Shown: positions 22,773-40,428 of the stretch, piece by piece
Layout: the number at the start of each line of letters is the position of its first letter
Numbering within the stretch: position 1 is the first letter of the stretch
Origin: a virus
Reading direction: 5' to 3' (one strand)
Virus record (IMG/VR): IMGVR_UViG_3300025645_000054
Span: 12,799 to 76,798 of that record
DNA: 64,000 bases
Made by a program: the position numbers and the translations under genes
The notes under the pieces: model-generated
Seen by the model: only the letters and a program-made list of their open reading frames with translations
Told to the model about the DNA's origin: nothing
Databases searched by the model: none

Positions 22773-22784
22773 TATTTCTTCGCG

Positions 22785-22850
<66 letters not shown>

Positions 22851-22937: not shown

Positions 22938-22954
22938 TTGCGTAAGTTACGCAA
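22938..22954. promoter_or_regulatory. 17-bp palindromic operator TTGCGTAAGTTACGCAA
   Basis: Perfect 8+1+8 palindrome repeated at 23753, 25997 and 28817. Confidence 0.8.
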
Positions 22955-22974
22955 TTTTTCCGGGAGCCAAAACC

Positions 22975-23685: not shown

Positions 23686-23872
23686 CAAGACCCTAGACCA
23701 CGACCCCGATCCGAGAGGATTTCACGACCACGACCACGACCCCGATCCAAGATTGCGTAAGTTACGCAATTCCATTCCGAGAGGAACTCAAGACCCTAGA
23801 CCACGACCCCGATCCGAGAGGATTTCACGACCACAACCCAAGATTGCGTAACATTCCGAGAGGAACTCAAGA
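23686..23872 (+). repeat. tandem duplication of operator/leader unit (period 103 bp)
   Basis: 46-bp exact repeat at 23686-23731 and 23789-23834; CATTCCGAGAGGAACTCAAGA twice; one full and one half operator. Confidence 0.9.
23753..23769. promoter_or_regulatory. 17-bp palindromic operator
   Basis: TTGCGTAAGTTACGCAA. Confidence 0.8.
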
Positions 23873-24225
23873 TGCTTTTACTATGCCTAGCCCTCAATAT
23901 CTACCACGAGGCCCGAGGGGAGCCGATCACAGGCCAGGAGCTGGTCGCCTCTGTTACGCTGAACCGCGTAGCAAGCCCCCTATACCCCGACAACGTCTGC
24001 GATGTGGTCTACCAGCCCCGCCAGTTCGCATGGACCGCAGACCCACCCCCAGTGACCGACACGCAGGCCTTCTACACGGCCCTGATGATCGCATGGGATG
24101 CCCAACCCATCAACGAGGCCACCCACTTCTACAGTGGCCCTGCGCCCTATTGGACGCGACACCCAGATTTTCAACTTGTCGGCCGCGTTTCTGGCCACAC
24201 CTTTTACAAGGAGACACGCCCGTGA
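23872..24225 (+). CDS. SleB-like cell wall hydrolase (Hydrolase_2)
   Basis: CLALNIYHEARGE..GQ.LVA.VTLNRV....PDNVCDVVYQ..QF.W...ATHFY...GHTFY. Confidence 0.9.
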   Translation: MLLLCLALNIYHEARGEPITGQELVASVTLNRVASPLYPDNVCDVVYQPRQFAWTADPPPVTDTQAFYTALMIAWDAQPINEATHFYSGPAPYWTRHPDFQLVGRVSGHTFYKETRP

Positions 24226-24680
24226 CTTTCATCGTGCACTTCGATCAAGACTCCATGAACCCCCGACAGGAGTTCGACCACCTCGGGACACTCGCTATCC
24301 TAGGGTATGGGGGCGATGAGGCCCCAGACCCTCACAACCCCCCACACGACGCCATCATGCTCCCTGTGTACCGCTACCAGCACTCGGGCGTGGCCTACAG
24401 CACCACGCCCTTCCACTGCCCATGGGACAGCGGCCAGACGGGATACATCTACGTGTACCGGTCCACCGTCCGCAAAGAATTCAACGTCAAACGGATAAGC
24501 CCCAAGCTCCACGATCGGGTCCTCGAGATCCTCCGTTCGGAAGTCGAGGAGTTCTCCTCGTGGAGTAATGGTGAGGTCTACGGATTCACCAACAATGAAA
24601 CAGATGACTCATGCTGGGGCTTCTATGGCCTCGAGTCCTTGATCGCAGAGATTGGAGATAATTATGAATTTGCCCAATAA
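24222..24680 (+). CDS. hypothetical protein
   Basis: GTGA overlap start; LPVYRYQHSG...WDSGQTGYIY. Confidence 0.75.
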   Translation: MTFIVHFDQDSMNPRQEFDHLGTLAILGYGGDEAPDPHNPPHDAIMLPVYRYQHSGVAYSTTPFHCPWDSGQTGYIYVYRSTVRKEFNVKRISPKLHDRVLEILRSEVEEFSSWSNGEVYGFTNNETDDSCWGFYGLESLIAEIGDNYEFAQ

Positions 24681-25026
24681 AGTATTGGCCCTGCAGACCA
24701 AACTGGTCAGCACACTCGGCAAGCAGCCCTATATCGACGCCCACCTCCTCGTCACTCCTGCCACCGAATCCCCGTACCAGATCTACTGGTACGGCGACAA
24801 CATCAACGAGGCCACCCGCCTCAACCACACCTCCCTCGACCAGCTCTTCCTTGATGCACACCATCTCCTAGACACCATGCCCACGGAAGAGGAGCGCGAA
24901 CGTCAGATTTTTGAAACCAATCTGCGGAAGCTGATCGACGAGGCCCCGGCCGGGGTCGACGTCACCCTGCTGCAAACTTTCCAATCCGGGTTTGCCAGCA
25001 ACCAGATCGAAGGACCCCGCTCATGA
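24664..25026 (+). CDS. hypothetical protein
   Basis: GGAG SD, coupled to neighbours. Confidence 0.7.
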   Translation: MNLPNKVLALQTKLVSTLGKQPYIDAHLLVTPATESPYQIYWYGDNINEATRLNHTSLDQLFLDAHHLLDTMPTEEERERQIFETNLRKLIDEAPAGVDVTLLQTFQSGFASNQIEGPRS

Positions 25027-25658
25027 AGGTCCTCATTGGCTGCGAGTGCAGCGGTGTCGTGCGTGATGCGTTCTTGGCCCAAGGCCACGACGCATGGTCC
25101 TGCGACATCAAACCCGCCGACACCCCCTCGAACCGTCACATCCAAGGCGACATCCTTGACGTCATGGAAGACAGCTCTTGGGATTTCCTTGCCGTGATGC
25201 ACCCTCCGTGTACCCGGCTGTGCAACTCCGGGGTCCGTTGGCTCTCCTCCCCGCCCCCGGGCCGGACCCTTGAAGAAATGTGGGCCGAACTGGACCAAGG
25301 CGCGGAGCTGTTTTCCAAAGTGTGGAACACCACCATCCCCCGTGTCGCGGTGGAGAACCCGGTCATGCACAAACATGCCAAGGCCCGGATCGAGAACTTC
25401 CAGCCTCACTCTCAATCCGTGCAGCCTTGGCAATTTGGCACGGACCCAGAGGGGCCAGACAACGAGAAGAAGCGGACCTGCCTCTGGCTCCGCAATCTGC
25501 CCCTGCTCCAACCCACCGGCACCTTGGACGGAACCCAAGCCCGGTCCTCCGTCCACCATGCGTCACCCGGACCCGATCGCGCAGCCCTGCGCTCCAAGTT
25601 CTTCCCGGGCCTAGCCCAAGCCATGGCCGAACAGTGGGGCCAAGCCAATGCCTGCTGA
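25023..25658 (+). CDS. short orphan DNA cytosine-5 methyltransferase-like protein
   Basis: VLIGCECSG (motif I variant), SCDI, HPPC (motif IV), ENP (motif VI). Confidence 0.75.
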
Positions 25659-26004
25659 AAATGAAGTCGATCTATCGGTGTTGAGCCGTGACCGTCAACT
25701 ACTGCCTCATCCAAAGTTCACGAACTATTTGATCAGTGATCGGGGGGATGTCGTTACCCTATTCTTCAAGAAGCCTCGACTCCGCAAAGGCTCCAAATCC
25801 AAAGACGGGTATCTGGTGGTTTCCATATCGGTCGAGCACCAGCGGGTTGTATCCCGCCGGATCCACAGGCTCGTGGCCGAAACCTTCATCCCTAATCCAG
25901 AGAACAAACCCTGTGTCCGTCATCTGGATGGGGACAAAACCAACAATCGCGTCCCCAACCTTGCTTGGGGGACCCACGCCGAAATGGAAGAAGGAATTGC
26001 GTAA
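25648..26004 (+). CDS. NUMOD4-HNH homing endonuclease, probably C-terminally truncated
   Basis: [41 protein letters not shown]; lacks the final motif Asn and runs into an operator. Confidence 0.8.
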
Positions 26005-26013
26005 CTTACGCAA
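25997..26013. promoter_or_regulatory. 17-bp palindromic operator
   Basis: TTGCGTAACTTACGCAA; palindrome extends to 25994-26016. Confidence 0.8.
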
Positions 26014-26049
26014 TTCTCCTTCCCCTCTCCTCAGAAAGGAACCTATCCA

Positions 26050-26403
26050 ATGAACATCTCCGAACTCTTCGACACCGCCATTGCCGGCCTCGAGGCCCAG
26101 ACCGAGAAGTCCAGCACACCCGGTACGGACCTGTGCCAGTATCATGGCCCCCACGGCACCAAGTGCCTCTTCGGCCACATGATGGACGCTGTACCCGACA
26201 CTATGAACACAGAGACCATCGGGTCCAATGTTATCTTGAAGCTCATCAGAGAATCCAGCGGTGTGGACCTGCTGGACACATTGAAAGCGGCAGACCTCGT
26301 GGCCCTCCAAGACATTCACGACGTCGACTGGAAAGTGGGCTACCCATTCCGCCCCCTGATCCCGGGACACCTGCAACTCAAAATTTGGGGAGATGTCCAA
26401 TGA
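26050..26403 (+). CDS. hypothetical protein, paralog 1
   Basis: LFDTAIA.LE.QTEKS...CQY.GPHGTKCLFGHM...LQ.IHD..WK.G.PFRPLIP.HLQLKIWG shared with the next gene. Confidence 0.8.
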   Translation: MNISELFDTAIAGLEAQTEKSSTPGTDLCQYHGPHGTKCLFGHMMDAVPDTMNTETIGSNVILKLIRESSGVDLLDTLKAADLVALQDIHDVDWKVGYPFRPLIPGHLQLKIWGDVQ

Positions 26404-26771
26404 CATCCATCGACCAACTCTTCGACACCGCAATCGCCGCTCTCGAGTCCCAGACCGAGAAGTCCATCAACCCCAACACAGACATGTGCCAGTACCGGGG
26501 CCCCCACGGCACCAAATGTCTCTTCGGCCACATGATCGCCGATGAGCATTACGAAAAAGTCACGGACAAATTCAGCACTCCAGTGTCGGATCCCAAGGTC
26601 CTGGAATCCATTTTCGCCTCCACGGGGGTGGATCTGAGATATACCTCTCTCGTCAATGAGATCAACAACCTCCAAGCAATTCACGATCACAAATGGAAAC
26701 CGGGCCAACCATTCCGGCCCCTGATCCCAGAGCACCTGCAACTCAAAATTTGGGGGGAGGTCATTACATGA
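26400..26771 (+). CDS. hypothetical protein, paralog 2
   Basis: Tandem paralog of 26050-26403, ATGA overlap. Confidence 0.8.
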   Translation: MTSIDQLFDTAIAALESQTEKSINPNTDMCQYRGPHGTKCLFGHMIADEHYEKVTDKFSTPVSDPKVLESIFASTGVDLRYTSLVNEINNLQAIHDHKWKPGQPFRPLIPEHLQLKIWGEVIT

Positions 26772-27025
26772 GCTGCTATCTCCCCATCGACGAGGACACG
26801 CTGGCCCAGACCGCCGAGGCCCTCGAGATCCTCAACCCCCTCGGTCGCACCTCCGCCCACCACATCCGGGACATGATCCGGGCCAACATGAATGAACGGC
26901 CCGGGACCTACCTCGCCACCGCTGGCTGGATCGCTTTCACATGGTGCCCTGAGAACGACCCCGACAACCTCCAAATCCGGGTCGCGATCGAGCCCTACAC
27001 CGCCCTCAAATATCTGAAAGGATAA
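26768..27025 (+). CDS. hypothetical protein
   Basis: GGAGG SD, ATGA overlap. Confidence 0.7.
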   Translation: MSCYLPIDEDTLAQTAEALEILNPLGRTSAHHIRDMIRANMNERPGTYLATAGWIAFTWCPENDPDNLQIRVAIEPYTALKYLKG

Positions 27026-27087
27026 ACCATGAACGTCCGCGACCTCATCTGCCAACTCGAGAACCTCGATCCAGAGGTTCTGATCCT

Positions 27088-27363
27088 ATGACCCAGCGCA
27101 CCAACAAGATCGGCCAGAACCGTGGCAAGCCGCGGCTCTGGATCGAGGGCAAGTTCCTTCAAGAGGCCGGGTTCATACCCCCGCTCCGATACAATTTTGA
27201 AAACAACGTCTTTACCCTCCACCCCGAGGGTAAGCGCAAGATCTCTGGCAAGCCCCAGAGACCCATCATCGACATCACCGGCCGGGACGTTCCCGTTGCC
27301 ACAGCTGTCACCCTGACAATCACCAACCCCGGGGAGATTACCCTTCATGTCCACGAAACTTGA
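27088..27363 (+). CDS. hypothetical protein with weak SymE/AbrB-like pattern
   Basis: PRLWIEGKFLQEAGF resembles the SymE-type P.L.L.G.WL..AGF pattern. Confidence 0.5.
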   Translation: MTQRTNKIGQNRGKPRLWIEGKFLQEAGFIPPLRYNFENNVFTLHPEGKRKISGKPQRPIIDITGRDVPVATAVTLTITNPGEITLHVHET

Positions 27364-27565
27364 CACGCTGGCCACAGATTGGGGCTACGCCGACGCCCAG
27401 CACATGGTCGAAGACTATATATTTGACGGGGTCATGCCCGCCATCTGCCAGAACCCTGGTTGTGACTATTCCACGGAAATGGAACCCGATCAGGATCATG
27501 GGTGGTGCGAAAACTGCTCCACCAACACCCTTCAATCCGCCTCAGTCATGATGGGAATAATCTGA
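27347..27565 (+). CDS. small zinc-ribbon protein
   Basis: CQNPGC...WCENC. Confidence 0.7.
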   Translation: MSTKLDTLATDWGYADAQHMVEDYIFDGVMPAICQNPGCDYSTEMEPDQDHGWCENCSTNTLQSASVMMGII

Positions 27566-27792
27566 TGAAAACTGTCCCCGGCCCCTCCCGGGTCCTTCTG
27601 GCCATCTGGTATGATTATGAGCTCGAGGTCCTGTCCTGCAAGACCGAGAAGGAAGCCATGGCCAGGATTTCCGAAGAGATCGAAGTGATCAGCGAGACCG
27701 GGCCACTCCTCTTCACCGAGGACGAGGCCTGGGAATATATCAACGATCATGGGATCCCCCTGAATTTCAAAATGAGAAAGGAGTACGACTGA
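27565..27792 (+). CDS. hypothetical protein
   Basis: TGATG coupling on both sides. Confidence 0.65.
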   Translation: MKTVPGPSRVLLAIWYDYELEVLSCKTEKEAMARISEEIEVISETGPLLFTEDEAWEYINDHGIPLNFKMRKEYD

Positions 27793-28397
27793 TGCCTATG
27801 ATCCAGCTGCCCTTCCAAGGGTTCTATCACACCACCCACTCCTGGCAGATCGACAACGAGTTTGATCGTGTGTCCACAGATTGGGAGGACATCATGGGCT
27901 GTGACATGCCCCAGTCCCTCGCCGATCTCTTCTTCATCGCCGCGGACTTCGCCGCTGCCTATGCGGAGTATGCTCAGGACTATGTCCAAGCCTTCTGCGA
28001 GGAGTTCTTTGACAGCGACGGCACCTTCGACGGGATGGAGTCCCCGAGGGAATACAATTTTGAAACCGATCGGGTCTTCGCCCAGATCTCCGACGAGACC
28101 CTGAAAAAGATCTGGGACGAGACCAGCGCTGAGCGCCTGAGAAAGGTCGCGGCCCGGAGGCACACTTCCTACGACGGGTTCTCCTCGTTCTACTCCTCCG
28201 ACACCTCCACCTGGGGCCCCTACCAAGAGTGGGACCACAACCAACTGATGACCCTGCTACTGGCATGGTTACCAGAAGACTTTGATGAGATGTGCCTCGT
28301 CGAAGATTTTGAATGCCAAACCCTCTGGAACAAGCCCGAGGCCAACCGGCCTTGGAAGATCTGGAATTACCTGACCTATGAAAGGAAGAACCGATGA
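27792..28397 (+). CDS. acidic, aromatic-rich hypothetical protein
   Basis: PFQGFY...ESPREYNFETDR; AAGGAG SD. Confidence 0.8.
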   Translation: MPMIQLPFQGFYHTTHSWQIDNEFDRVSTDWEDIMGCDMPQSLADLFFIAADFAAAYAEYAQDYVQAFCEEFFDSDGTFDGMESPREYNFETDRVFAQISDETLKKIWDETSAERLRKVAARRHTSYDGFSSFYSSDTSTWGPYQEWDHNQLMTLLLAWLPEDFDEMCLVEDFECQTLWNKPEANRPWKIWNYLTYERKNR

Positions 28398-28807
28398 ACA
28401 TCGAAGAAATTCAAACCACACTTGCCCAACTGGTCGTGCAGATGACCGAAAAGGGGGTCCTCACGCCCAGCACAGAACTGGACATAAAAGACAGCGGCCG
28501 GTTTTCAGTCTACCTGACGGCAAAATACAACTCGGAGGCCTTTGGCCAAGATGGCAACAGCAAATTTCTACATGGGGATACCGCTCCCGAGGCGTTTGCG
28601 AATGCCTACGCCTACATCCAGGCACTACCCTCCCCCGAAGAAGCACAGACCCGGGAGTTCCTCAAGAGGGTCGCCAACGCGATCGACTTTGCCACGGACC
28701 ACAGCATTGCAGATGAATACGTCACCCCTCTGCGCAGCGTCACCTGTGCCATGACCGAAAACCTCCTGCCGGCACCGGAGATTGCTATGCAATCGAAGAA
28801 TATATGA
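28394..28807 (+). CDS. hypothetical protein
   Basis: AAGGA SD, ATGA overlap. Confidence 0.75.
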   Translation: MNIEEIQTTLAQLVVQMTEKGVLTPSTELDIKDSGRFSVYLTAKYNSEAFGQDGNSKFLHGDTAPEAFANAYAYIQALPSPEEAQTREFLKRVANAIDFATDHSIADEYVTPLRSVTCAMTENLLPAPEIAMQSKNI

Positions 28808-28816
28808 CTTTCAGAA

Positions 28817-28833
28817 TTGCGTAACTTGCGCAA
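28817..28833. promoter_or_regulatory. 17-bp palindromic operator (1 mismatch)
   Basis: TTGCGTAACTTGCGCAA, intergenic. Confidence 0.75.
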
Positions 28834-28880
28834 TTTTAAGCCAACCCCCTAACCCCCCAACCCCCATCCGTGAGGATATC

Positions 28881-29609
28881 ATGAAAATCATCGTCAAGTA
28901 TTACGGCCCGGTCACCGTCACCGACCCGGACTATCCCAAGGATCTCCCCAACAAACACTTCAATGTCTGGGGAGACAACCGGCCCACCTTCGAACAGCAG
29001 GGCACTCATGAATATGAGGTGGACTCCAAGCATCTCTTTGATGATCAGGTGAACACCACCTGCGGCAAACGGATCCACGACTGGGCCGATTACATGTCCC
29101 CGAACCGTCATATGCGCTGGGGCCACTACGTGGTCAACATCGATGAGCTGAACAAGTTCCGCCACCAGTATTTCAAGTGCGGATACTGCGGCAACATGGA
29201 CCAGACCGGCGGGTGGTGCCAAAAGTGCCGAGGGTCTGAATTCCTGACCCCCGACGTCCACCACCTGCTCCACATGGTGCGCCTTGGGGACAAGCGTGAG
29301 AAACTTCCCATCCCCGACGACGTCCTCGGGACCATCCACCACGATCAGAAGGCGACGGATGCCCGGAAGCTGAAGCGTAAGCGCCTCCAAATCTTGGCCG
29401 AGATTGAGAAGAAGGAGACGGATCTCCTCTTCCACGACATTGTCATCAAACGGGGCCTGACCTTTGCCCAGATCAGCAACTGCATCCACTATAGCCACAA
29501 GGACAAGTTCTGTTTCGGATGGAAAACCCCGGTCTCCGTCGAGGAAGCCGACATCATCGCCAAGGCCATGGAGGGGACTCCGTTTGAGCTGGAGTTCGTC
29601 ACCGTATGA
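28881..29609 (+). CDS. hypothetical protein with CxxC...CxxC zinc finger
   Basis: CGYCG...CQKC; preceded by the repeated leader. Confidence 0.8.
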   Translation: MKIIVKYYGPVTVTDPDYPKDLPNKHFNVWGDNRPTFEQQGTHEYEVDSKHLFDDQVNTTCGKRIHDWADYMSPNRHMRWGHYVVNIDELNKFRHQYFKCGYCGNMDQTGGWCQKCRGSEFLTPDVHHLLHMVRLGDKREKLPIPDDVLGTIHHDQKATDARKLKRKRLQILAEIEKKETDLLFHDIVIKRGLTFAQISNCIHYSHKDKFCFGWKTPVSVEEADIIAKAMEGTPFELEFVTV

Positions 29610-29706
29610 GTATGACCTGCGACGACCCCTGCGACGACGTATCAAAGGATGTCCAGAAATGGACATCCCCTCCCCCCCCCCCCCAACCCCAATCCGAAAG
29701 GAACAC

Positions 29707-30300
29707 ATGATGGGATGGACCACCCTTTACGATCGCCCTGATGACCCTAAGGCTTATTTGGCCCGAAATCTAACATGGGAAACAGAAAATTTCTATGCCG
29801 CCCCACTGGCAATTCGAAATGTTGGCAGCACCTACTATGCCGCCACCAAAATGCAACCCAAGCCGGATAAAAAGCTCTCCAATTCTATGAAGAGCAATTA
29901 CGTACTGGCCTCAGATGGGTCCGTCGTCTTTGCCGTAGTATACCTCACCTCCGTCAAAAACGGTGAGTTCAGCTACAAAGACATGACCGAGGACATGGGT
30001 CCTAACGAGAGCAAGGCCCCGCCCCTGATCCTTAACCTTCTGTCACCCCTCACGGACCCCCTATGTTATGCCGCCGAGTGGCGGGCTAGGTGCCGGGTAT
30101 ACTCCAAGCGTTTCCGTCCAAAAACTGGGGACAACATCCGGATCAAAGAGGCTTGGGAGCCCTACGGTCGAGATTTTGAAAAGGTAAAGTACTACCGATC
30201 TCGGGGCGTGTACCGATCACACAAGAACCAACAACTGGTTCGTTTGAGCTCCCACCAACTGGCCGAGGCCACTCTAATCAAGGATATGAACCCCCGATGA
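29707..30300 (+). CDS. hypothetical protein
   Basis: MGW...YYAA...YKDMTEDMGP...AAEWRARC; preceded by the repeated leader. Confidence 0.8.
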   Translation: MMGWTTLYDRPDDPKAYLARNLTWETENFYAAPLAIRNVGSTYYAATKMQPKPDKKLSNSMKSNYVLASDGSVVFAVVYLTSVKNGEFSYKDMTEDMGPNESKAPPLILNLLSPLTDPLCYAAEWRARCRVYSKRFRPKTGDNIRIKEAWEPYGRDFEKVKYYRSRGVYRSHKNQQLVRLSSHQLAEATLIKDMNPR

Positions 30301-30557
30301 CCCAGACATATGCCATTAGAACCTCACTGTACTGCAGCCCTTCCTCCCGGGACTTTGAACTGCCTGAGGGCAAAAACTGGGAGGACATCCAGGAGTGGTT
30401 CATCAAGTGGGACCAGCTGAACTTCACCTACGACGGCACCAACTGGCACAGATTGGATCTCCAGAGCGAGACCAACGACGCCACCGATTGGAAGAGGCCC
30501 ATCAGCGCCACGGTCTATTCAGAAGCCGAAGGCATCATTGAAGAGAAGGATCTTTGA
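30297..30557 (+). CDS. hypothetical protein
   Basis: ATGA overlap; acidic and Trp-rich. Confidence 0.65.
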   Translation: MTQTYAIRTSLYCSPSSRDFELPEGKNWEDIQEWFIKWDQLNFTYDGTNWHRLDLQSETNDATDWKRPISATVYSEAEGIIEEKDL

Positions 30558-30558
30558 T

Positions 30559-30810
30559 ATGAAAGCCATCATCCATGTGAACCGCCAAAACATCGCGATG
30601 AATGCCAAGGACCAAGGTGATCGTCCGGTGTATACCGTCAAGCGTAACGGAACCACTCGTTACGCCCGACAAATTGAGATCCACGGACCAAGCACCTTGG
30701 TCTACGACGGCCGGCAGCTGAGCTGCGGGGCCCGGGCGTGGATAGAAACCCGATCTCCCCTCACCCTGATCGACGAAATGTCGTTCCAAGAATCGCGGAA
30801 GACAGCATGA
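30559..30810 (+). CDS. hypothetical protein
   Basis: IIHVNR..I..N...LSCGARAWIET; AAGGA SD. Confidence 0.75.
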   Translation: MKAIIHVNRQNIAMNAKDQGDRPVYTVKRNGTTRYARQIEIHGPSTLVYDGRQLSCGARAWIETRSPLTLIDEMSFQESRKTA

Positions 30811-32063: not shown

Positions 32064-32088
32064 CCACACCGTATCCGAGGAGGATCAC

Positions 32089-32469
32089 ATGCAAGAACAA
32101 GAAGCCGCCACCATCCTTGCCGCCCTGCGCTATTATCAGGAGAACGGTCAGGGGGATCCCGCGAACCGAACCCAGTGGACCCACGACATCGCCACCAACA
32201 TGGACCTCGTGGTCTCACTGGACGACGACGGGATCGATGAGCTGTGCGAAAAGCTCAATCAGGAGCCTGAGGTCTCGGTCTTCACCGTCTCACGACTGAC
32301 CGATGCCTATGTCGTCCACACCCAGGAAGTCATCACGGACACAGCCGAGGAAGCGCTCAGGATCTCTCGGCTCTTTCCGGAGCGCTGGGTCTCTTCCCAC
32401 GTCTCTGAATTCGATCATCATGACTACACTGTCCACGACGCAGATGGCGACGAGGTGATCGGGATATGA
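32089..32469 (+). CDS. hypothetical protein
   Basis: ATILAALRYYQ; preceded by a leader variant. Confidence 0.75.
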   Translation: MQEQEAATILAALRYYQENGQGDPANRTQWTHDIATNMDLVVSLDDDGIDELCEKLNQEPEVSVFTVSRLTDAYVVHTQEVITDTAEEALRISRLFPERWVSSHVSEFDHHDYTVHDADGDEVIGI

Positions 32470-33572: not shown

Positions 33573-33868
33573 GCGCTTATCACCAGCTGACCGCAATCAT
33601 GGAGGCTCACCCGGACCTTGTTTTCTGCAACGACGGGTACCAGAACCTCCCCGCCGAAATCGTGGAAGCCAACAAGGAGACCATTCAGGAGATTGAAAAA
33701 ATCCTGAAGGAGAAAGTCTGGGGGTTCGTGTCTTTCCAGAATTTCAAACCCCGCAAAGATGGCTCCATGGCTGTGCGATATCAGGCCCGCTACGACGAGA
33801 ACACAGGCTTCGTGGGGGTGGTGTACACCCCTCTGGCAGAATTTCAGGAGAAAACCAATGACTATTGA
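33569..33868 (+). CDS. hypothetical protein
   Basis: ATGA overlap. Confidence 0.7.
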   Translation: MSAYHQLTAIMEAHPDLVFCNDGYQNLPAEIVEANKETIQEIEKILKEKVWGFVSFQNFKPRKDGSMAVRYQARYDENTGFVGVVYTPLAEFQEKTNDY

Positions 33869-34190
33869 ACCAAACAATTTCTTTGCCACACCAACAGATA
33901 TGGCTGATCTCATGCGACGGCTGAAACTTTACAGCGGCCCAGAGTGCGTGGCCGCATCAATGGGTGCCGGGATGGCCTGGAACCTTGCGGCCAAGGTCTC
34001 CAACACCCGGCCCCCGGAACTCTGGGCCAACTACCAAGACGATTTCAATTCCATGAGCGACGACGATATCCGCCAAGAAACCCAGGGGGCTCAGCAGCTC
34101 ATTGATGAAAGTGAGCGCTGGGTCGAGGCGGTGGCCATGTGGACCGCAGCCGGTCGTCCTCGCACCTCAGACAAGGAGGAGAGGGCATGA
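33858..34190 (+). CDS. hypothetical protein
   Basis: AGGAG SD. Confidence 0.7.
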   Translation: MTIEPNNFFATPTDMADLMRRLKLYSGPECVAASMGAGMAWNLAAKVSNTRPPELWANYQDDFNSMSDDDIRQETQGAQQLIDESERWVEAVAMWTAAGRPRTSDKEERA

Positions 34191-34522
34191 AGAACGACAC
34201 AGAAGAACTGTTCCAGAAGTGTCAAGAGGCCCGGTCAAAGTTACGGGAAGCAAGGCAGTTTCTGACCCAAGAGAATGACAAATACCGTGAGGCACTGATC
34301 CGAGACAGGATCGCTGAACTGGAAGCCGCCGGCATGCCCCTAGGGTCAAAGGTCAGGGCGTATCACGGGGAATTCTTTCAGGGTGAATACTTAATCCAAA
34401 GCGTTTCGGTCCCTTTGGGTAAGGCCCGCATCCATCTCTGCAAATTCAAGAAAGACGGAACGCCTTATCTCAAGACACCACGCGTCTCGTTCGACCGCCT
34501 TGAGCCAGTACAGGAGACGTAA
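34187..34522 (+). CDS. hypothetical protein
   Basis: AGGAG SD, ATGA overlap. Confidence 0.7.
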   Translation: MKNDTEELFQKCQEARSKLREARQFLTQENDKYREALIRDRIAELEAAGMPLGSKVRAYHGEFFQGEYLIQSVSVPLGKARIHLCKFKKDGTPYLKTPRVSFDRLEPVQET

Positions 34523-34560
34523 CCTAACTTCCCCCCCCCACCCCCATCCGAGAGGATCAC

Positions 34561-35319
34561 ATGAAAACCTATATTATTTACGAGGGGCCCAGCCTCCTCG
34601 ATGGCCAGCCTATTGTGGCACTGGCCCAGATCGGTAGCAACAATACCAAGACTGGCAACCAGCTTCAGACATACATCTTCAGGGCGGACATAGATCCGCT
34701 GGAGGCCAGCAGGAGCGGCGAAGATTTCAGCATCTGTGGCAACTGCACCCTCCGGGGCGTGGCCCACGGCGGCAACGAAGGACAGGCCCGGGACCGGGCC
34801 TGCTACGTGGTCCTGTTTCAAGCCCCCTTGGGCAAGTACCGGGCCTACAAGAGGGGAAGCTATTCCCGGGCCACCGACATCGCTGCGATCGGCCGGGGCA
34901 AGACCGTCCGCATCGGAAGTTACGGAGACGGTCTGGCGGTCCCCGAGAGAATTTGGGATGAGTTGTGCAGCGAGGCCAATGGCCACACAGCCTATACCCA
35001 CCAAAAGAATACCCAACCACACCGGTTTATGACCTCGGTGGAGAGCTTGGGAGAGGCAGAACAAGCATGGGACCGCGGAGAACGCACTTTCCGCGTTGTC
35101 AAATCAGTCGAGCAGATGGTCAAAGGAGAAGTGCTGTGCCCCGCTTCGAAAGAGGCAGGCCAGCGTACCACCTGTGTCAGCTGCCAGCTATGTGCTGGCA
35201 ACTCCAAAAAAGGAAAGTCCATTGCCATCGTGGCACATGGAAATGGAGGTAAGAAGCTGCGCCAACGACTGGAGACGACCAATGATCTCACACAAAGTGA
35301 TGCTCATAACAGGGTCTAA
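34561..35319 (+). CDS. Cys-rich, putative Fe-S / radical-SAM-like phage protein
   Basis: SNNTKTG, ICGNC...CYV, VRIGSYGD, AYTH, CPAS...CVSCQLC. Confidence 0.55.
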   Translation: MKTYIIYEGPSLLDGQPIVALAQIGSNNTKTGNQLQTYIFRADIDPLEASRSGEDFSICGNCTLRGVAHGGNEGQARDRACYVVLFQAPLGKYRAYKRGSYSRATDIAAIGRGKTVRIGSYGDGLAVPERIWDELCSEANGHTAYTHQKNTQPHRFMTSVESLGEAEQAWDRGERTFRVVKSVEQMVKGEVLCPASKEAGQRTTCVSCQLCAGNSKKGKSIAIVAHGNGGKKLRQRLETTNDLTQSDAHNRV

Positions 35320-35509
35320 GGCCCAAGATGCATTCAATGAGGGAGAGAGAAACCCCAATAAATTATTGGACCTAGGCTACTGCCAAGTGTTCTCATTCCG
35401 AACGAGGGATGAGAAAGTCGCGTTCATAGAAGGCCTTAGGATAGGATCCAAAACAGTCAACCCTTGGCTATTTGATCTTTCCGAGTCCGTTCTCTTTCGC
35501 GATACCTGA
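35282..35509 (+). CDS. hypothetical protein
   Basis: GGAG SD before ATG 35282; converges on mucR. Confidence 0.5.
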   Translation: MISHKVMLITGSKAQDAFNEGERNPNKLLDLGYCQVFSFRTRDEKVAFIEGLRIGSKTVNPWLFDLSESVLFRDT

Positions 35510-35824
35510 CCGACGAGTGGAATAATTTGAGGGCACAAACGGATAATCTTCCGGGAGCCCCCAGCGTTCTATGTACTGCTCGTCGGTCATACCGTGGTGA
35601 GTTTTGAGATACCGGCGCAGGAGTTTCACTTCTGCCCCGTCCTCAAGGCACACCAGATAGTCATCGTGGACCGACTCCTCGATCGGCACCGCCGGTACCA
35701 GAACCGGATCCCTCAGATTTTCGAGAGCCTCTTTGATAGCCACAAGGGTGTCAGGGAGTTTTTCGAGGGGAACTTTGTTGTTGGCCAGATAGGCTGCAGC
35801 CAGAGTAATGATGTCGCGGTTCAT
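35468..35824 (-). CDS. mucR: Ros/MucR-family transcriptional silencer
   Basis: AAYLANNKV..EKLP, PAVPIEESVHDDYLVCLEDG, Y.ERWGLP.DYP.V..NYS.RRS.IAK..GLG are diagnostic; GGAGG SD. Confidence 0.92.
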   Translation of the reverse strand: MNRDIITLAAAYLANNKVPLEKLPDTLVAIKEALENLRDPVLVPAVPIEESVHDDYLVCLEDGAEVKLLRRYLKTHHGMTDEQYIERWGLPEDYPFVPSNYSTRRSGIAKENGLGKIK

Positions 35825-35839
35825 AATACCTCCCAAGAG

Positions 35840-35869
35840 ATTTCCATGCAATGTCTTGCATGGAAATGT
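35840..35869. promoter_or_regulatory. inverted pair of the 16-bp motif between divergent mucR and KTSC genes
   Basis: ATTTCCATGCAA-TGTC-TTGCATGGAAAT(GT). Confidence 0.7.
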
Positions 35870-35907
35870 CGACAACTGTCAACCACCAAAGTAAAAGGAA
35901 GATAACC

Positions 35908-36276
35908 ATGAAGGACGAAAAAATGACCAAAGATGAAATTCATATCCGTAAAGCTCCCTCCTGGGCCTGGAGGGTAATCGACGAACTCATTTCAGACCAC
36001 CTGGGGAGCTCCCTCATCAAATCGGCCGCGGATCAGATGTTTGAAGATGTGGAGGTGGTCATGCAACCCGTGGTGAGCAGCAACATCGCAGCGGTAGGGT
36101 TCAGGGAATTTTGCGGACTCATGGTAGTCCAGTTCAAGAACGGGTCAATCTATCAATATGATAATGTTACCCCAGAGTTGTATCACGAAATCGTGAACGC
36201 TGACTCCGTGGGCTCGACCTTTAACCGGGTGGTCAAGTCCAACCCGACCGCGTACCCCTTCACCAAGCTCATCTAG
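35908..36276 (+). CDS. KTSC domain protein
   Basis: VVSSNIAAVGF...VQFKNGSIYQY.NV..E.Y..IVNA.SVG..FN..VK. Confidence 0.85.
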   Translation: MKDEKMTKDEIHIRKAPSWAWRVIDELISDHLGSSLIKSAADQMFEDVEVVMQPVVSSNIAAVGFREFCGLMVVQFKNGSIYQYDNVTPELYHEIVNADSVGSTFNRVVKSNPTAYPFTKLI

Positions 36277-36298
36277 AGCGGTAATCCGAGAGGATCTC

Positions 36299-36616
36299 AT
36301 GCTTACAACTTCCGATGTCGCGGGCCGGCTGAACGTCAGCTCCCGTACCGTACAGCGCCTCATCCAAAGTGAGGGGTTGCCAGCGTTCCGCATCGGAGGG
36401 CATTATCGCTACGTCGAGCAGGAGCTCGATCGTTGGCTAGTCCGTAAACGTATGAGGACCACATGGAACAAGGACAAGGTCGCGTCTACACGCGCCCCGA
36501 GAGCAGGTCATACTGGATCGAATATAGAAGTTCTGACGGACGGAAAATTCGAAGATCTGCTAAAACCCAAGACAAGAAAGAAGCTGAAGCCGAGCTGGGA
36601 AGGCTCCTTCGGTTGA
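36299..36616 (+). CDS. xis: excisionase-type helix-turn-helix protein
   Basis: MLTTSDVA..LNVS.RTV.RLI...GLPA.RIGG.YR....EL..W; directly upstream of the integrase. Confidence 0.8.
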   Translation: MLTTSDVAGRLNVSSRTVQRLIQSEGLPAFRIGGHYRYVEQELDRWLVRKRMRTTWNKDKVASTRAPRAGHTGSNIEVLTDGKFEDLLKPKTRKKLKPSWEGSFG

Positions 36617-37506
36617 GGACCTCGATTTCCTTCAAAGAGGCGGTCGTGGACTTCTTCGAGGTGAATGGCCACGGGCGTCTCAAGCCCAAAACCATTCAGA
36701 ACTACGAAACCTCTCTCAGAGCGGTGGCTCCACTTTTTTCAGAATTGTCTTTGGACGAGATCCGAACGGATCAGCTCAAACAATTGGTACGTGAACGGCG
36801 CAAGACTGTGTCGGACACATCTGTGAAGAGGGATCTCGCTTTTGTCTCAAGCGTGTTCAGTCATGCAATTGGGACCATGCCGCAGGCACCGGAAACTAAC
36901 CCTGTTCTTAGCTTCAGTAAACGTCACCTAAAGGAACAGGCAAGAACCCGGTGGCTGCGGCCGCACGAGTATGATCGGCTCATTGAGAGCTGCCAAAACC
37001 CCACACAAGCACTGGTCATCAAGACCGCAACCCTGACCGGGATGCGGCACACTGAGCTGTCCAGTCTCCGGAAGGGGATGATCAATTTTCAGAAAAAGGA
37101 GGTCATACTAGATGTTGATCTGACGAAGAACGGAAAGGAGCGGGTCGTACCCCTCTGTGCGTCACTGTGTTTCGACCTGGAACAGCTGTGTCTACGAACA
37201 CCGGGGGATTTAGTGTTCTGCTATATGCATGGCGCTACCCGGGAGTGGAGATCTTATCAGAATTTCTCCAACTTCTGGGATGGTGTTCGAACCCGAGCCA
37301 ACTTGAAAGATGTGAGGTTTCACGACCTTAGGCATACTTTCGCCTCGTGGTGGGTACAGGCAAATGGGGATCTGCTGCGACTGAGGGACATCCTCGGACA
37401 CAGCTCTCTCCAGATGGTCCAGCGGTATGCCCACCTGAACACAGGCGGGCATCACGCGGAGATAAACGAGGTGTTCGAAACACACTTTGCACACAGCCTC
37501 GAATAA
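36463..37506 (+). CDS. int: tyrosine integrase
   Basis: TGMRHTE (R), TKNG (K), FHDLRHT (HxxR), LGHS...RY (H, Y); N-terminal arm-binding-like strand; adjacent attP. Confidence 0.95.
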   Translation: MEQGQGRVYTRPESRSYWIEYRSSDGRKIRRSAKTQDKKEAEAELGRLLRLRTSISFKEAVVDFFEVNGHGRLKPKTIQNYETSLRAVAPLFSELSLDEIRTDQLKQLVRERRKTVSDTSVKRDLAFVSSVFSHAIGTMPQAPETNPVLSFSKRHLKEQARTRWLRPHEYDRLIESCQNPTQALVIKTATLTGMRHTELSSLRKGMINFQKKEVILDVDLTKNGKERVVPLCASLCFDLEQLCLRTPGDLVFCYMHGATREWRSYQNFSNFWDGVRTRANLKDVRFHDLRHTFASWWVQANGDLLRLRDILGHSSLQMVQRYAHLNTGGHHAEINEVFETHFAHSLE

Positions 37507-37541
37507 TACCGGACACAGACCCCGGGTAAGTCTTTGATAAG

Positions 37542-37590
37542 TGGTGAGCCGTGCAGGATTCGAACCTGCGACCCACTGATTAAAAGTCAG
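37542..37590 (-). other. attP core: 3' 49 nt of tRNA-Lys(UUU)
   Basis: Minus strand reads CTGACTTTTAATCAG-TGGGTC-GCAGGTTCGAATCCTGC-ACGGCTC-ACCA (anticodon arm, T arm, acceptor 3' strand, CCA); no D arm or 5' acceptor strand upstream. Confidence 0.9.
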
Positions 37591-37722
37591 TACTAGCCAG
37601 CGTCAAAATTAATCTAAGGTACTGGTTTCACTCACTTATCACTGACGACACCCGGGGTCATGTGCGCCAGGAAACCCTGTTCGCGACACACTTTTGCGGA
37701 CACAGCACATTTGGTAGGCATC

Positions 37723-38118
37723 ATGAAGAATACGCAACGAAACAACGGCATCGCCCAGGAGTATATCCGGGGCTCAACTCTGGAGCAGATCTCTTCAGAG
37801 TATGGGATTTCCCCCCGGATGATCAGGTACATCCTGACCCAGAAGGGCCTCAGAGCTGAGGACCGTAAAAAACAACCCTCTTTTGATCTGGCTCCAAGCC
37901 CCCGCAGCCAACTTCATCTAAAGATTGGACAGCGGCTCTATGAGGCTTACTTTGTTAAGAGGGGTCTAAGCCGCGCCGAAGCGGCGGTCAAAATGGGGAT
38001 CAGTGCCAAGGGTTTGAGGAACCTTGAGAGCGGAAGATCGAATATTGACCTGCTGACTTTGCAGAACATTGCAGGTTTCATGGAAATAAGTGTGGGAGAA
38101 CTCATTGATGGCAGTTGA
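37723..38118 (+). CDS. two-HTH transcriptional regulator (C-terminal XRE-type), candidate repressor
   Basis: N-terminal GSTLEQIS.EYGIS.R.I; C-terminal RGLSRAEAA..MGIS...L.NLESG......TL..IA. Confidence 0.8.
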   Translation: MKNTQRNNGIAQEYIRGSTLEQISSEYGISPRMIRYILTQKGLRAEDRKKQPSFDLAPSPRSQLHLKIGQRLYEAYFVKRGLSRAEAAVKMGISAKGLRNLESGRSNIDLLTLQNIAGFMEISVGELIDGS

Positions 38119-38287
38119 TAATCGGCTATATAAATATTTCCGGAATGTGTGGTTGTTCCGAACAACAGGACAGGAAGTGTACAAGAACATGCTAATTCAG
38201 CAAGCACAGGCACCCCATACCCCCGAGGGTCGCGCGGCCCTCCGTGTGGTTCAGAAAGAACAATGGGGGGTATATGCAACAGGTTGA
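38108..38287 (+). CDS. small hypothetical protein
   Basis: GGAG SD, overlaps neighbours. Confidence 0.5.
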   Translation: MAVDNRLYKYFRNVWLFRTTGQEVYKNMLIQQAQAPHTPEGRAALRVVQKEQWGVYATG

Positions 38288-38975
38288 CACATTCGGTATC
38301 CATTGGGACGGGCCGATCGCGTGGTTACAACAGGGAAGAGGGGGCTCCAATTTTTTGGGGCTCCATAAAAAGTCGCCATTCAAAAATCCATCAGGAGCCT
38401 GTAACCATCTGGTCCCTGTGGCCGCGCCGATCCCTGATCGGGTTCACTGGGAGGCCCTACTCAAGATCAATGATGACCCACTGGTACAAGCGATGCTGCC
38501 GGTGCCAAAAGAGGTGGGCTCTCGGCTCTACTACATTGTGGATCCCCACGATGATTTGAACCTCTACATCTCCTGCCTCTCTCGTTTCAGTTCCCCCATC
38601 CGACCGGTCATGAAACCGGAATGGATGATGACGAAAAAAGCTCTGGAGCGGGAACTCCTCTCGACGAACATCCAACCTCTGGTGATCACGCAGGTGAAGA
38701 GGACAGACATGAAACTGGTGGCAGCCCTCGCGGCCTCCACCAACTACCTACCGCGGACGTTGATTCTGAGCGGGGCCGGGGATATCCCTCTGCCGCCTCA
38801 GTATCAACTGATCGAGACAAAAATCCGAGACACGGATATTTCAGACCTCGTGACCCTGCCCCTTGAAACCATCGGGGCAACTCTGATCCGCCGTTACATG
38901 CGCAACGAAGATCTTTTTGGCCCCATCGAGTCCCGGCAAGCCCGCCGGGAACGGTTGAACCAAGAGAAACCCTAA
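38274..38975 (+). CDS. hypothetical protein
   Basis: 233-aa ORF filling the space before the helicase. Confidence 0.65.
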   Translation: MQQVDTFGIHWDGPIAWLQQGRGGSNFLGLHKKSPFKNPSGACNHLVPVAAPIPDRVHWEALLKINDDPLVQAMLPVPKEVGSRLYYIVDPHDDLNLYISCLSRFSSPIRPVMKPEWMMTKKALERELLSTNIQPLVITQVKRTDMKLVAALAASTNYLPRTLILSGAGDIPLPPQYQLIETKIRDTDISDLVTLPLETIGATLIRRYMRNEDLFGPIESRQARRERLNQEKP

Positions 38976-39000
38976 CCCCAAACCAATCCGTGAGGAATTT

Positions 39001-40428
39001 ATGCCCGAACTTCGACCCGCCCAGGTGGCCCATTTGGCGTTCTTTATGGCCACCCCCCGGTGTCTGGATCTCAGCGATCCGGGCACAGGAAAAACTCCCC
39101 CCGCCTGCACTTATATGGGCTTCCTATGGAGCCACCGGAAGGTGCGCTCCGTCTGGACCATGCCCAAGAGTTTGCTCAAGAAGAACCGCGACGAGCTGCT
39201 GTTCTTCTCCGACCTGACCGAAGAAGACGTAGTCATCGTCGACGGTCCCCCCACCAAACGCACCAAGCTGATGAAAAGTGACGGCAAGGTGTTCCTGATG
39301 GGCTTCGACTGTTTTTCAAACAACTGGCAGGAGCTACTCGGGTACCACCCCGACATCGATGCCCATGTCTCGGACGAGATCCACATGGGGTATGGGGGCC
39401 CCAGCTCCCAACGCACCCAGAGCATGTTCGCGGCCATGAAGCACATCAAATACTTCTTGGCCATGACCGGCACGATCATCAACGGGAGGCTCTCATCGGT
39501 CTACCCCTGTATCGAGCTGTGTGCCCCCCATCTCTACCCCCACGGTTACGATCAATTTGAGAGCCGACACTCTCTCAAAGACACCTTCGGGAACACGGTC
39601 GCGTGGATCGATCCCAAACCCATCTCACAGTTCTTGGGCAAGTTCGGGGTCCGACAGACTTTTGAAGCGGCCTACGGCAAAGAGAAGAAGGTCATCGTGG
39701 TCGAAGAGTGCGACATGACCCCAAAACAGTACGAGGCCTACGAGGAGTTTGAAGAGACAGCCCTGCTGGAATTGGAAGAAGTCTGGCTGGATGGATCTCT
39801 CCCCGGGGTGAACTTCATCCGCTGCCGGCAGCTGATGGAACACCCCCAGACCTTTGGGGAGCCCTTGGACAAGATCAAACACACCGGGAAGGAAGAGCAG
39901 CTGCGGATCCACATGCAGCATGCCCTTGATACGGGGGAAGCCCTGATCATCTTCGCGGCCCTTGTCCCCAGCCAAGAGCGGATCGCCCAGCTGGCAGAAA
40001 AGATGGGCCTGCGCGTCGGGCTGATCAACGGCAACGTCAGCACCAAACGGCGGAACGTCCAGAGCGAAGCATTCATTGCGCGTGAACTGGATGTGATGGT
40101 GGCCTCGCCGGCCACGGCATCAGTCGGCTACAACTGGGGATTTGTAGACCATGTGGTCTTCAGCTCCATGGACGCCATGGACAGCTCCTTTGTCCAAGGC
40201 TACCGGCGGGCGATGCGCGGGGTCCGGAAGCGGGCGCTGCTGATCACCCTCCTGAAATACCGGAACTCAAAAATTGAGAACCGGATCTTCGAGATCATCG
40301 ACCAGAAGTCCAAACTTGCGGCCGACGTCGATGACCGAAACGAGCGCCTGGATCTCCAAGAGACCGGGAAGAAACGGAAACACATGACGAAGAGTGGAAA
40401 GCTCTCGATGGAGGCCTTCATGAAGTAA
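39001..40428 (+). CDS. SF2 (SNF2-like) helicase
   Basis: DPGTGKT, SDEIH, MTGT, SVGYN, QGYRRAMRG motifs. Confidence 0.9.
   Translation: MPELRPAQVAHLAFFMATPRCLDLSDPGTGKTPPACTYMGFLWSHRKVRSVWTMPKSLLKKNRDELLFFSDLTEEDVVIVDGPPTKRTKLMKSDGKVFLMGFDCFSNNWQELLGYHPDIDAHVSDEIHMGYGGPSSQRTQSMFAAMKHIKYFLAMTGTIINGRLSSVYPCIELCAPHLYPHGYDQFESRHSLKDTFGNTVAWIDPKPISQFLGKFGVRQTFEAAYGKEKKVIVVEECDMTPKQYEAYEEFEETALLELEEVWLDGSLPGVNFIRCRQLMEHPQTFGEPLDKIKHTGKEEQLRIHMQHALDTGEALIIFAALVPSQERIAQLAEKMGLRVGLINGNVSTKRRNVQSEAFIARELDVMVASPATASVGYNWGFVDHVVFSSMDAMDSSFVQGYRRAMRGVRKRALLITLLKYRNSKIENRIFEIIDQKSKLAADVDDRNERLDLQETGKKRKHMTKSGKLSMEAFMK

Follow-up and report, generated by a model that had tools for sequence, protein, structure and literature searches.

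The 64,000-nucleotide (nt) stretch of viral DNA analysed here, referred to as the window, comprises bases 12799-76798 of the 76.8-kb IMG/VR virus record IMGVR_UViG_3300025645_000054 (94% complete by CheckV) and contains a short leader element that is repeated directly ahead of the start codons of unrelated genes. Structural genes lie on the minus strand up to ~17.9 kb, and the interval 18-55 kb is almost wholly on the plus strand. The leaders occupy a block of small, mostly unannotated genes between the primase-polymerase gene (19057-21480) and the helicase gene (39001-40428). The same block includes a MucR/Ros homologue on the minus strand, an Xis-like HTH_17 gene, a tyrosine integrase and a tRNA-like remnant by the integrase; the phage is temperate. 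Achromobacter phages JWF and 2-1, Xylophilus phage Lumi and Caulobacter phage Seuss have terminases, DNA polymerases and primase-polymerases that share 42-55% identity with those of the window phage, and the nearest cultured phages by TerL, PolA and primase are JWF, Lumi and Seuss. The primase is 80% identical to that of a TARA ocean contig, 63% to a Tateyamaria protein and 50% to that of a Kiloniella prophage. MucR is typical of Alphaproteobacteria. Taken together, MucR, the TARA contig, the Tateyamaria protein and the Kiloniella prophage point to a probable marine alphaproteobacterial host.

Twelve copies of the leader were recovered in the window with a covariance model (CM) built from 50 leaders of five phages. 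All twelve are on the plus strand at 21.8-39.0 kb, and the model gave in addition one weak stray match inside a minus-strand gene. The pattern TCCGNNAGGA occurs 10 times on the plus strand and 0 times on the minus strand, against a shuffle mean of 3.2 for both strands together. Seven copies had been cited in an earlier note on this DNA, and all are present at their positions, 4-7 nt ahead of the ATG of open reading frames (ORFs) of 105-475 codons; each is matched by the CM. They are TTCC-GAGA-GGAA with a 6-nt spacer (23854-23874; ATG 23872, a Hydrolase_2/SleB-like protein of 117 amino acids, aa), ATCC-GTGA-GGAT with spacer ATC (28866-28883; ATG 28881, 242-aa ORF), TCC-GAAA-GGA with ACAC (29693-29709; ATG 29707, DUF6927 protein), ATCC-GAGGA-GGAT with CAC (32073-32091; ATG 32089, 126-aa ORF), ATCC-GAGA-GGAT twice, with CAC (34546-34563; ATG 34561, 252 aa, sub-threshold DUF7227) and with CTC (36284-36301; ATG 36299, HTH_17, Xis-like), and TCC-GTGA-GGA with ATTT (38987-39003; ATG 39001, helicase of 475 aa). 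Five copies are additional to these. The variant A-TCC-AAGTA-GGA at 21820 (feature 21819-21840, CM E = 0.014) has a 7-nt spacer before ATG 21838 of a 283-aa ORF, and the degenerate TCCT-CAGAA-AGGA at 26028 (26028-26052, CM E = 0.11) precedes ATG 26050 of a 117-aa ORF. The other three are 'empty' copies of TCCGAGAGGA at 23710, 23776 and 23813, with no ATG after them, in a ~100-nt tandem duplication on the plus strand (23686-23853). They form a stack of four copies (23686-23871) with the SleB leader, in which an ATG follows the last copy alone.

The proteins downstream of the window leaders are unrelated to one another, and the accessory genes are nearly blank in Pfam. Above the cut-off only Hydrolase_2, DUF6927, HTH_17, Phage_integrase, MucR and Helicase_C are found; the DUF7227 match of the ORF at 34561-35319 is sub-threshold (22.8 bits against a cut-off of 27). 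The names given earlier to three of these genes (SleB-like hydrolase, Xis-like helix-turn-helix (HTH) protein, helicase) are broadly right by Pfam. A KTSC protein, also named there, has no counterpart in Pfam scans of 30 ORFs from 21.8-40.4 kb.

Read from 5' to 3', the leader consists of a G-poor stretch rich in C and A, then (A)UCC, a loop of mostly purines with G first and A last, GGA(U), a spacer and AUG. Among the 50 leaders of the CM the spacer is 4 nt long in 36, most often (U/A)CAC, and 7-9 nt in 11; the loop begins with G in 42 and ends with A, position -1 is A in 33 and the spacer has C at +4 in 40. Beyond the stem, the CAA ahead of TCC, the G that opens the loop and the (T/A)CAC next to ATG are also conserved, and the overall composition is 34% C and 17% G. 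The alphaproteobacterial 16S rRNA 3' tail, ...CCUCCUUUCU, is complementary to the purine run plus GGA, which matches its UCCUUUC. At its 3' end the Kiloniella 16S gene reads ...GGATCACCTCCTTTCTAAGGA; mRNA complementary to this tail reads AGAAAGGAGGUGAUCC, and GAAAGGA therefore pairs with the tail over 7 nt. GAGAGGA and GGAAGGA pair over 7 nt with one G.U, and the GGAGGA of a relative, G007, is the canonical core. The 3' arm of this real, repeated and strand-specific leader is thus the Shine-Dalgarno (SD) sequence itself, as had been proposed. As judged from complementarity, the supposed GNRA loop and the 3' arm would together simply be an extended SD (GAAAGGA, GAGAGGA or GGAGGA), and its pairing with the 16S tail would exclude folding with the upstream UCC, and vice versa. 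Three conserved parts, TCC, the -1 A and the C at +4 of the spacer, lack complementarity to 16S rRNA in a continuous helix. Extended 16S pairing of ATCC or GGATCAC was ruled out on helix polarity, by reasoning only.

The earlier note had treated a GNRA loop as a key feature of the element. Loops are GNRA in the window, and in relatives they are 3-8 nt long and mostly non-GNRA, for example GATGGA, GTTGGA and GTAGGA in G007, GAG in L051 and varied loops of 4-8 nt in the Kiloniella prophage. A GNRA-tetraloop or boxB-like protein-binding hairpin would keep a GNRA fold (or a GNRA-like pentaloop) among its homologues; here GNRA identity is not maintained, and only the G...A ends are kept. A G.A closing mismatch of a loop is stabilising under the Turner nearest-neighbour rules. 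Direct reading places GGA in the 3' arm of the stem, not in the loop; CsrA/RsmA sites have GGA in the loop of a short hairpin. A scan of 17.9-41.5 kb with Rfam 15 at E <= 1 returned the tRNA-like remnant and a sub-threshold osmY match, with nothing at the leaders.

The combination of TCC and GGA, here called the clamp, is commoner than expected of ordinary SD leaders. Called genes with GGA 2-10 nt before the start were scored for TCC 4-6 nt upstream, with shuffles of the preceding 25 nt as the reference. Where a gap comes before the start there are 7 clamps in the window phage (shuffle mean 2.0, P = 0.0025), 11 in its relative G001 (mean 1.6, P <0.0005) and 13 in G007 (mean 1.9, P <0.0005); copies that share a genome do not count as independent observations. 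The clamp is thus ~4-7x commoner at stand-alone starts than in shuffled SD-bearing leaders in these three genomes. A frequency no higher than in such shuffles had been named beforehand as grounds for abandoning the motif; the observed frequency is higher in all three. No excess occurs in the same genomes at starts that overlap the upstream gene (1, 2 and 2 clamps against ~2). An excess at gap-preceded starts and none at overlapping ones means that the clamp marks stand-alone initiation sites. Gene calls were made with a simple ORF and codon-score caller, by which a few genes, such as those at 29707 and 36299, were missed or mis-started.

Evidence for a stem comes from pairing across the leaders. 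The three core pairs hardly vary, whereas the fourth is A-T in 27 of the 50 leaders, T-A in 7, G-C in 1, G-T in 1 and unpaired in 14; it is therefore formed in 36, and 5000 within-phage shuffles average 27.7 and reach 35 at most. Copies with T after GGA have A (27) or G (1) before TCC without exception. Pair counts in alignment A4 put 70.4% of cells as paired, compared with 64.1%, and the covariation score at 0.124, compared with 0.070; none of 500 shuffles scored as high, and slid controls of the stem pair count were all lower. In ViennaRNA predictions the isolated hairpins have 3-5 bp and -2.7 to -5.6 kcal/mol, and in a 70-nt context the clamp pairs at a probability >=0.5 in most copies. Our judgement is that this is a real but marginal 3-5 bp helix under selection. 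The small conserved stem proposed earlier is borne out in that it is kept with some covariation across six related phages; RNAalifold retains just two consensus pairs.

Five relatives (two IMG/VR phages with complete genomes, a pair of metagenome contigs and a prophage of Kiloniella) carry the leader in their own versions, and L051 has a further variant. The closest, provirus G001 (IMGVR_UViG_3300033553_000842), has a helicase 74% identical to that of the window phage; exact TCCGNNAGGA occurs 12 times on its homologous strand against once on the other, and its 17 leaders include many of the form TCC(G/T)GAAAGGAACACATGATG. The 78.8-kb G007 (primase 65% identical) has 13 leaders, mostly ATCC-G(A/T)TGGA-GGAT-NNN-ATG, together with TTCC-GCTGGA-GGAA and, behind a C tract before the helicase, ATCC-GGAA-GGAT. 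Four leaders each occur in metagenome contigs L148 (80% identity) and L166 (62%). The Kiloniella prophage, with 45% GC and outside the CM training set, gave 20 CM matches, 19 of them on the gene-sense strand; its consensus is ccAATCC-G..A-GGATC(T/A)TAT-ATG, and the A-T fourth pair is present in 16 of 18 copies. L051 (48% identity, 62% GC) has CATCCCT-GAG-AGGGA-CAA-ATG three times (~17979-18006, 18330-18357 and 22230-22257); the additional G of its SD arm has a partner in an additional C of the 5' arm, a compensated stem change. TCC is kept in six phages with GC contents from 45% to 61%. Leader stacks recur as well. In G001 an analogous stack (reverse-complement 57453-57551) has one copy followed by an ATG-TAA start-stop mini-ORF, and after another copy a 17-codon upstream ORF runs across the palindrome and the next leader to end as ATGA on the gene start. 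The Kiloniella prophage has a pair of adjacent copies (L129 20104-20160).

The distribution is narrow. The leader is absent from 30 kb of the accessory region of Caulobacter phage Seuss, from the JWF-like records G008 and G009, and from unrelated phages with DUF7227-like homologues. Because those homologues occur elsewhere without it, the leader is a trait of a phage sub-lineage and not of the genes. Megablast of 28-40 kb against 50,697 phage records gave no match to a close DNA relative. The exact 17-mer leader pattern was found in 10 IMG/VR stretches, about the estimated chance level, and besides G001 none of the 5 other contigs from that scan has the strand-biased, multi-copy signature. Searches by helicase, DUF7227-like protein and TerL returned only G001 or unrelated phages, and a scan of genome contigs returned only distant relatives (<=50% identity), among them the Kiloniella prophage. 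The compared set does not extend to the nearest relatives by primase, P0002-P0011 (ENA and Logan; 66-76% identical).

C tracts precede several leaders on the plus strand, as had been reported. A C-rich, G-free tract (28841-28865) lies directly 5' of leader 28866; the C-rich tract 29669-29692, with C13 at 29672-29684, is between a hairpin (29647-29668) and leader 29693; the tract 34527-34545, with C9 at 34531-34539, is 5' of leader 34546; and a C/A-rich tract (38970-38986, of which 38970-38984 is the C tract) is 5' of leader 38987. Long C runs are a trait of the window phage and not of the element in general; what the leaders share is a C/A-rich, G-poor stretch at -6 to -3. The hairpin at 29647-29668, GGATGTCC-AGAAAT-GGACATCC, has 8 perfect bp and sits immediately ahead of the C13 tract and leader 29693. 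With no T run behind it, it does not qualify as a classical intrinsic terminator. Another C-rich tract, CCCCCACACCCCCCCC, precedes the DNA polymerase gene at ~41340-41380. G001 keeps the C tract at the equivalent place (reverse-complement ~2300-2337), but the SD behind it is a plain GAGG that lacks the TCC clamp, so that C tracts and clamp are separable.

A subset of window leaders has a palindrome 1-30 nt upstream. The 19-bp palindrome ATTGCGTAA-G-TTACGCAAT (23752-23770) is 5 nt upstream of the leader copy at 23776; further ATTGCGTAA-N-TTACGCAAT palindromes are at 22937-22955, 25996-26014 and 28816-28834, with a variant at 21801-21815, directly 5' of leader 21819-21840, and a half site at 23843-23852. 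Other palindromes occupy the same place in G001 (AATTGCGCAC-NN-TGCGCAAT) and in the Kiloniella prophage (GGTATTACGTAATACC), and more distant relatives have repeated palindromes of their own: TGTTCCAACGTTGGAACA x7 in L058, AAAAGTGCAATTGCACTTTT x~13 in L065 and CCAAAACGGTTTTGG x6 in L083. From their sequences and placement, these palindromes look like a phage-specific, operator-like companion system, comparable to the ESAS of mycobacteriophages discussed below.

Several other features of the block were recorded. The ROS_MUCR family protein is complete (35468-35824, minus strand, Pfam E = 1e-31), is kept in G001 and G007, and is encoded by the sole convincing minus-strand gene of the early region. 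Adjoining the integrase gene (36463-37506) is the tRNA-like remnant (37545-37614, minus strand; Rfam tRNA 25.2 bits, below threshold; ARAGORN negative), which resembles the 3' half of tRNA-Lys(UUU) and probably represents the attP core; in the G001 provirus record the cut falls between integrase and helicase, which fits this reading. The long non-coding gap after gene 21838-22689 contains a (CGCCCG)n array of ~12 copies (22781-22864), and (GGGCTC)n hexamer arrays occur at the equivalent place in L055/G007 and L088. Ahead of the leader stack is a ~750-nt gap without a credible ORF (23300-23660), with AT-rich, purine/pyrimidine-rich mirror segments at 23420-23560.

Two mechanisms had been put forward for the leaders, namely a translational switch in which the SD is masked until a phage factor acts and a source of homology for shuffling gene blocks, and neither is supported. 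For the switch, the opening cost, the free energy needed to hold positions -16 to +3 single-stranded, was calculated for every called gene in three genomes. Clamp genes have a median of 6.2 kcal/mol, other stand-alone genes one of 6.4 and coupled genes one of 6.9 (not significant); in the window phage alone the values are 4.9 against 6.8 kcal/mol. Since the cost is not raised, the clamp leaders are no more closed than ordinary starts in these GC-rich genomes. Protein contents were compared by tblastn between motif-bearing genomes (window phage, G001, G007 and Kiloniella) and the motif-lacking G008, G009 and G011, the last of these classed as motif-lacking only provisionally, with 5 forward and 3 reverse regex matches. 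Only the integrase (Int) and an Xis-like HTH protein are present in all four of the former and none of the three latter, a link that shared ancestry and a temperate lifestyle explain just as well. The comparison argues against a dedicated conserved phage factor and would be compatible with a fast-evolving or a host factor. The absence of any other shared factor, the unexceptional opening cost and stems of 3-5 bp and -2.7 to -5.6 kcal/mol all tell against the switch.

For shuffling, nucleotide homology with G001 starts exactly at leaders 29693 and 34546; such starts are expected of any unit of ribosome-binding site plus gene when the non-coding DNA has diverged. Junctions of gene gain or loss are not enriched in leaders: among the window phage, G001 and G007 a leader is present at 19 of 94 changed and 41 of 168 unchanged gene junctions (odds ratio 0.78, P = 0.54), in a comparison whose resolution is limited by crude gene calls and genomes only ~70% identical. 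From these counts, most insertions and deletions fall where stop and start overlap and no leader is present. Leaders of one genome resemble each other more than leaders of different genomes do (identity at variable positions 0.69 against 0.59, P < 0.0005), and the orthologous DUF6927 gene has a GAAA loop in the window and G001 and a GATGGA loop, the G007 type, in G007. Because of this loop difference and the higher within-genome likeness, some homogenisation or genome-specific tuning of leaders does occur. A scan of 21.4-39.1 kb for sigma-70 promoters and terminators, which did not cover alphaproteobacterial promoter types, gave no excess over shuffles and nothing at the leaders.

Our preferred, tentative reading, with a probability of about 0.45, is that the element is a lineage-specific start-associated leader, a cis-acting standard module for translation initiation with an insulating or tuning role. 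This reading builds on what was observed here: how the leader is put together, its excess over shuffles, its conservation with partial covariation of the stem, its confinement to starts that are not coupled, the 16S tail of one host with its complementarity to the purine run, and an opening energy no higher than that of ordinary starts. The module of ~20-28 nt would act in cis on the mRNA. It heads the stand-alone early and accessory genes between primase-polymerase and helicase, start/stop-overlapping genes being without it, and would serve genes that are unable to rely on stop/start coupling. Its parts would be a G-poor approach, a long purine SD that fits the 16S tail, a mostly 4-nt spacing and an ATG that is usually followed by A. 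The upstream UCC would be an anti-SD mimic that folds onto GGA in a mini-hairpin of 3-5 bp, probably too weak to shut off translation. The same small, local and fast-folding structure ahead of each gene could impose a uniform, modest opening cost and could keep the purine SD from pairing with whatever neighbours it meets in a mosaic genome; a phage-specific factor would presumably not be needed.

Several observations weigh against this module. Of the 49 alignment rows, 32 lack one and 37 the other of the two outer pairs, and the two consensus pairs that RNAalifold retains amount to -1.3 kcal/mol. Much of the covariation could stem from two paralogous subfamilies, ATCC...GGAT and NTCC...GGAAC, and not from independent compensation. 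A hairpin does not account for the conserved spacer (C at +4 in 40 of 50) or for the conserved positions -1 to -4. The 20 nt 5' of the hairpin are not significantly more unpaired than those of other genes (0.49 against 0.44), and within-genome likeness and the recurrent 'empty' stacks suit a trans factor or gene conversion at least as well. A ribosome standby platform was also considered and was dropped on the same predicted unpairedness, which is not significant.

The main rival to a cis-acting module, possible and clearly less probable than it, is an RNA operator, in which a putative trans factor (a phage or host protein or a small RNA) binds the hairpin and its flanks, 10-20 early genes are repressed or activated together as a translational regulon, and the 'empty' stacks are extra sites or decoys. 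Conservation beyond the stem (CAA, the first-loop G and (T/A)CAC) is in its favour, as are a leader flavour particular to each genome, expected of co-evolution with a cognate factor, gene-less copies that recur in G001 and the adjacent pair in the Kiloniella prophage; the same question was raised for the analogous start-associated sequence (SAS) of Cluster K mycobacteriophages (PMC3203893). It is weakened by tblastn, in which no protein except integrase and the Xis-like HTH protein tracks the motif in the 4 versus 3 genomes, and by loops whose length (3-8 nt) and sequence vary, which is awkward for a sequence-specific loop binder. The plus strand is without an antisense copy of the motif, and no Rfam family matches it. 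A narrower form, that the leaders are cis elements of a phage regulon whose flavour is read by a putative fast-evolving phage protein, host protein or RNA, seems to us somewhat more doubtful; 10-20 early or accessory genes would then be switched together, and the gene-less stacks would be decoys or a sponge.

The remaining explanations are less probable again. It is improbable that the leaders are cassette junctions like the promoter-early stem-loops (PeSLs) of T4-type phages, in which they would supply short homology for gene swapping and the hairpin would be incidental. The exact starts of G001 homology at 29693 and 34546, accessory genes that almost all differ between phages behind a common leader, homogenisation within genomes, duplicated and empty leaders, and variants such as ACACACG-ATG that resemble mutated copies of one ACACATGATG template all suit this idea, but the junction counts (19/94 against 41/168, odds ratio 0.78, P = 0.54) do not, the common core is merely 10-20 nt, and the covarying fourth pair and fixed ATG distance are left unexplained. 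More improbable still is a DNA palindrome (ATCC...GGAT) bound by a dimeric DNA-binding protein, the Xis-like HTH_17 protein for instance or some other regulator. The leader does form an inverted repeat, and Int and Xis alone track the motif across the seven genomes compared; nevertheless, half-site spacing ranges between 3 and 8 bp, copies lie strictly on the sense strand with a fixed distance to the ATG, the centre of the element is an asymmetric purine run that matches the anti-SD, and shared ancestry and temperate lifestyle account equally well for the Int/Xis link. Least probable of all is an ordinary SD with TCC as a by-product of C-rich leaders. Leaders with 34% C and 17% G do make a chance TCC likelier, and the stems are very short, yet shuffles of the 25 nt that keep composition give ~2 clamps against 7, 11 and 13, TCC is kept in six phages from 45% to 61% GC, and the 5' flank depends on the 3' flank in the fourth-pair shuffle test. 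The enrichment, stem and Kiloniella results largely refute this explanation.

The earlier note regarded the leaders as the best candidate in this DNA for an undescribed system, a claim that has to give way to a close functional precedent, SAS/ESAS of Cluster K (PMC3203893). SAS is a 13-bp GGG-ATAGGAG-CCC repeat found 3-7 bp before mostly ATG starts, with 11-19 copies per genome in one orientation and in the non-structural arm only; about half of the copies are preceded by inverted repeats (ESAS), whose consensus differs between subclusters (PMC3203893, 2011). Its function is unknown (PMC3203893) and was still untested in 2025 in a survey of 188 genomes (PMC12699233). The leader is likewise a short asymmetric repeat whose outer parts are symmetric around an SD core (here TCC-purines-GGA), a few nt before ATG (spacer 4 nt in 36/50 and 7-9 nt in 11/50) and on the sense strand only. 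Copies per genome are similar (12 in the window, 17 in G001, 13 in G007 and ~19 in Kiloniella), the downstream genes are unrelated, window copies are confined to the non-structural 21.8-39.0 kb, and the SD core again has conserved flanks that are unable to pair with 16S rRNA. As with ESAS, a subset is preceded by an inverted repeat that differs between the window (ATTGCGTAA-N-TTACGCAAT, 5 sites), G001 and Kiloniella. In organisation the leader thus agrees with SAS/ESAS in every feature. It differs in other respects. The carriers are JWF/Seuss-like siphoviruses of Alphaproteobacteria instead of Mycobacterium phages, with no sequence similarity, and the SAS consensus GGGATAGGAGCCC has 0 matches in the window at <=2 mismatches. 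The arms of the leader include part of the SD (GGA), so that folding excludes 16S pairing, whereas SAS arms flank the SD; loop length varies and one stem pair covaries, which is not reported for SAS. Judged by sequence and layout, the leader is best regarded as an analogue of SAS/ESAS, not a homologue or member.

Two other known systems are comparable in part. PeSLs are promoter-early stem-loop cassettes between accessory ORFs that have been proposed as recombination substrates (PMC2839356, PMC4122927), and indel end-points inside the cassettes were shown in phages phi1 and RB49 (PMC2839356). They share with the leader short conserved motifs repeated among small accessory ORFs of variable regions. 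PeSLs are, however, transcriptional and intergenic (promoter plus terminator), and the leader belongs to the ribosome-binding site and is fixed to the start codon; no excess of sigma-70 promoters or terminators was found (alphaproteobacterial promoter types being outside the scan), and gain/loss junctions are not enriched at leaders. Hairpins that sequester the SD are known from the ribosome-binding site of the coat gene in RNA phages (PMC2978339), ROSE thermometers, Mu com/mom and T4 RegA/RegB (PMC3014915). There too an anti-SD pairs with the SD and initiation needs melting. Those hairpins, which serve translational coupling or control, act on single or few genes and usually have stronger stems or a known protein partner; the leader, in contrast, is a stereotyped 3-5 bp structure before 10-19 genes, and its opening cost is not higher. 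No ROSE or fourU match was found in the Rfam 15 scan of 17.9-41.5 kb.

The repeated leader is a real feature, conserved and with solid statistics behind it, and its anatomy had been read correctly in the earlier note; the tests that could be run lend no support to a switch or to shuffling. SAS has been known in Cluster K since 2011, and a second, unrelated lineage with proteobacterial hosts has arrived at the same layout of an SD clamp before the ATG, in many copies, in the non-structural arm only and with a companion palindrome. By analogy, this recurrence suggests that the layout may be a general solution for expressing many small, often-exchanged genes in a mosaic genome. If the regulon reading were true, it would, by convergence, be a pointer to the function of mycobacteriophage SAS. 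A clamp that takes in part of the SD and a covarying pair, both absent from SAS, give a concrete hypothesis that is open to test by mutation, and one carrier is a prophage in a genome assigned to the named genus Kiloniella, so that experimental work could be feasible. The leaders are thus a second, more tractable instance of start-associated sequences.

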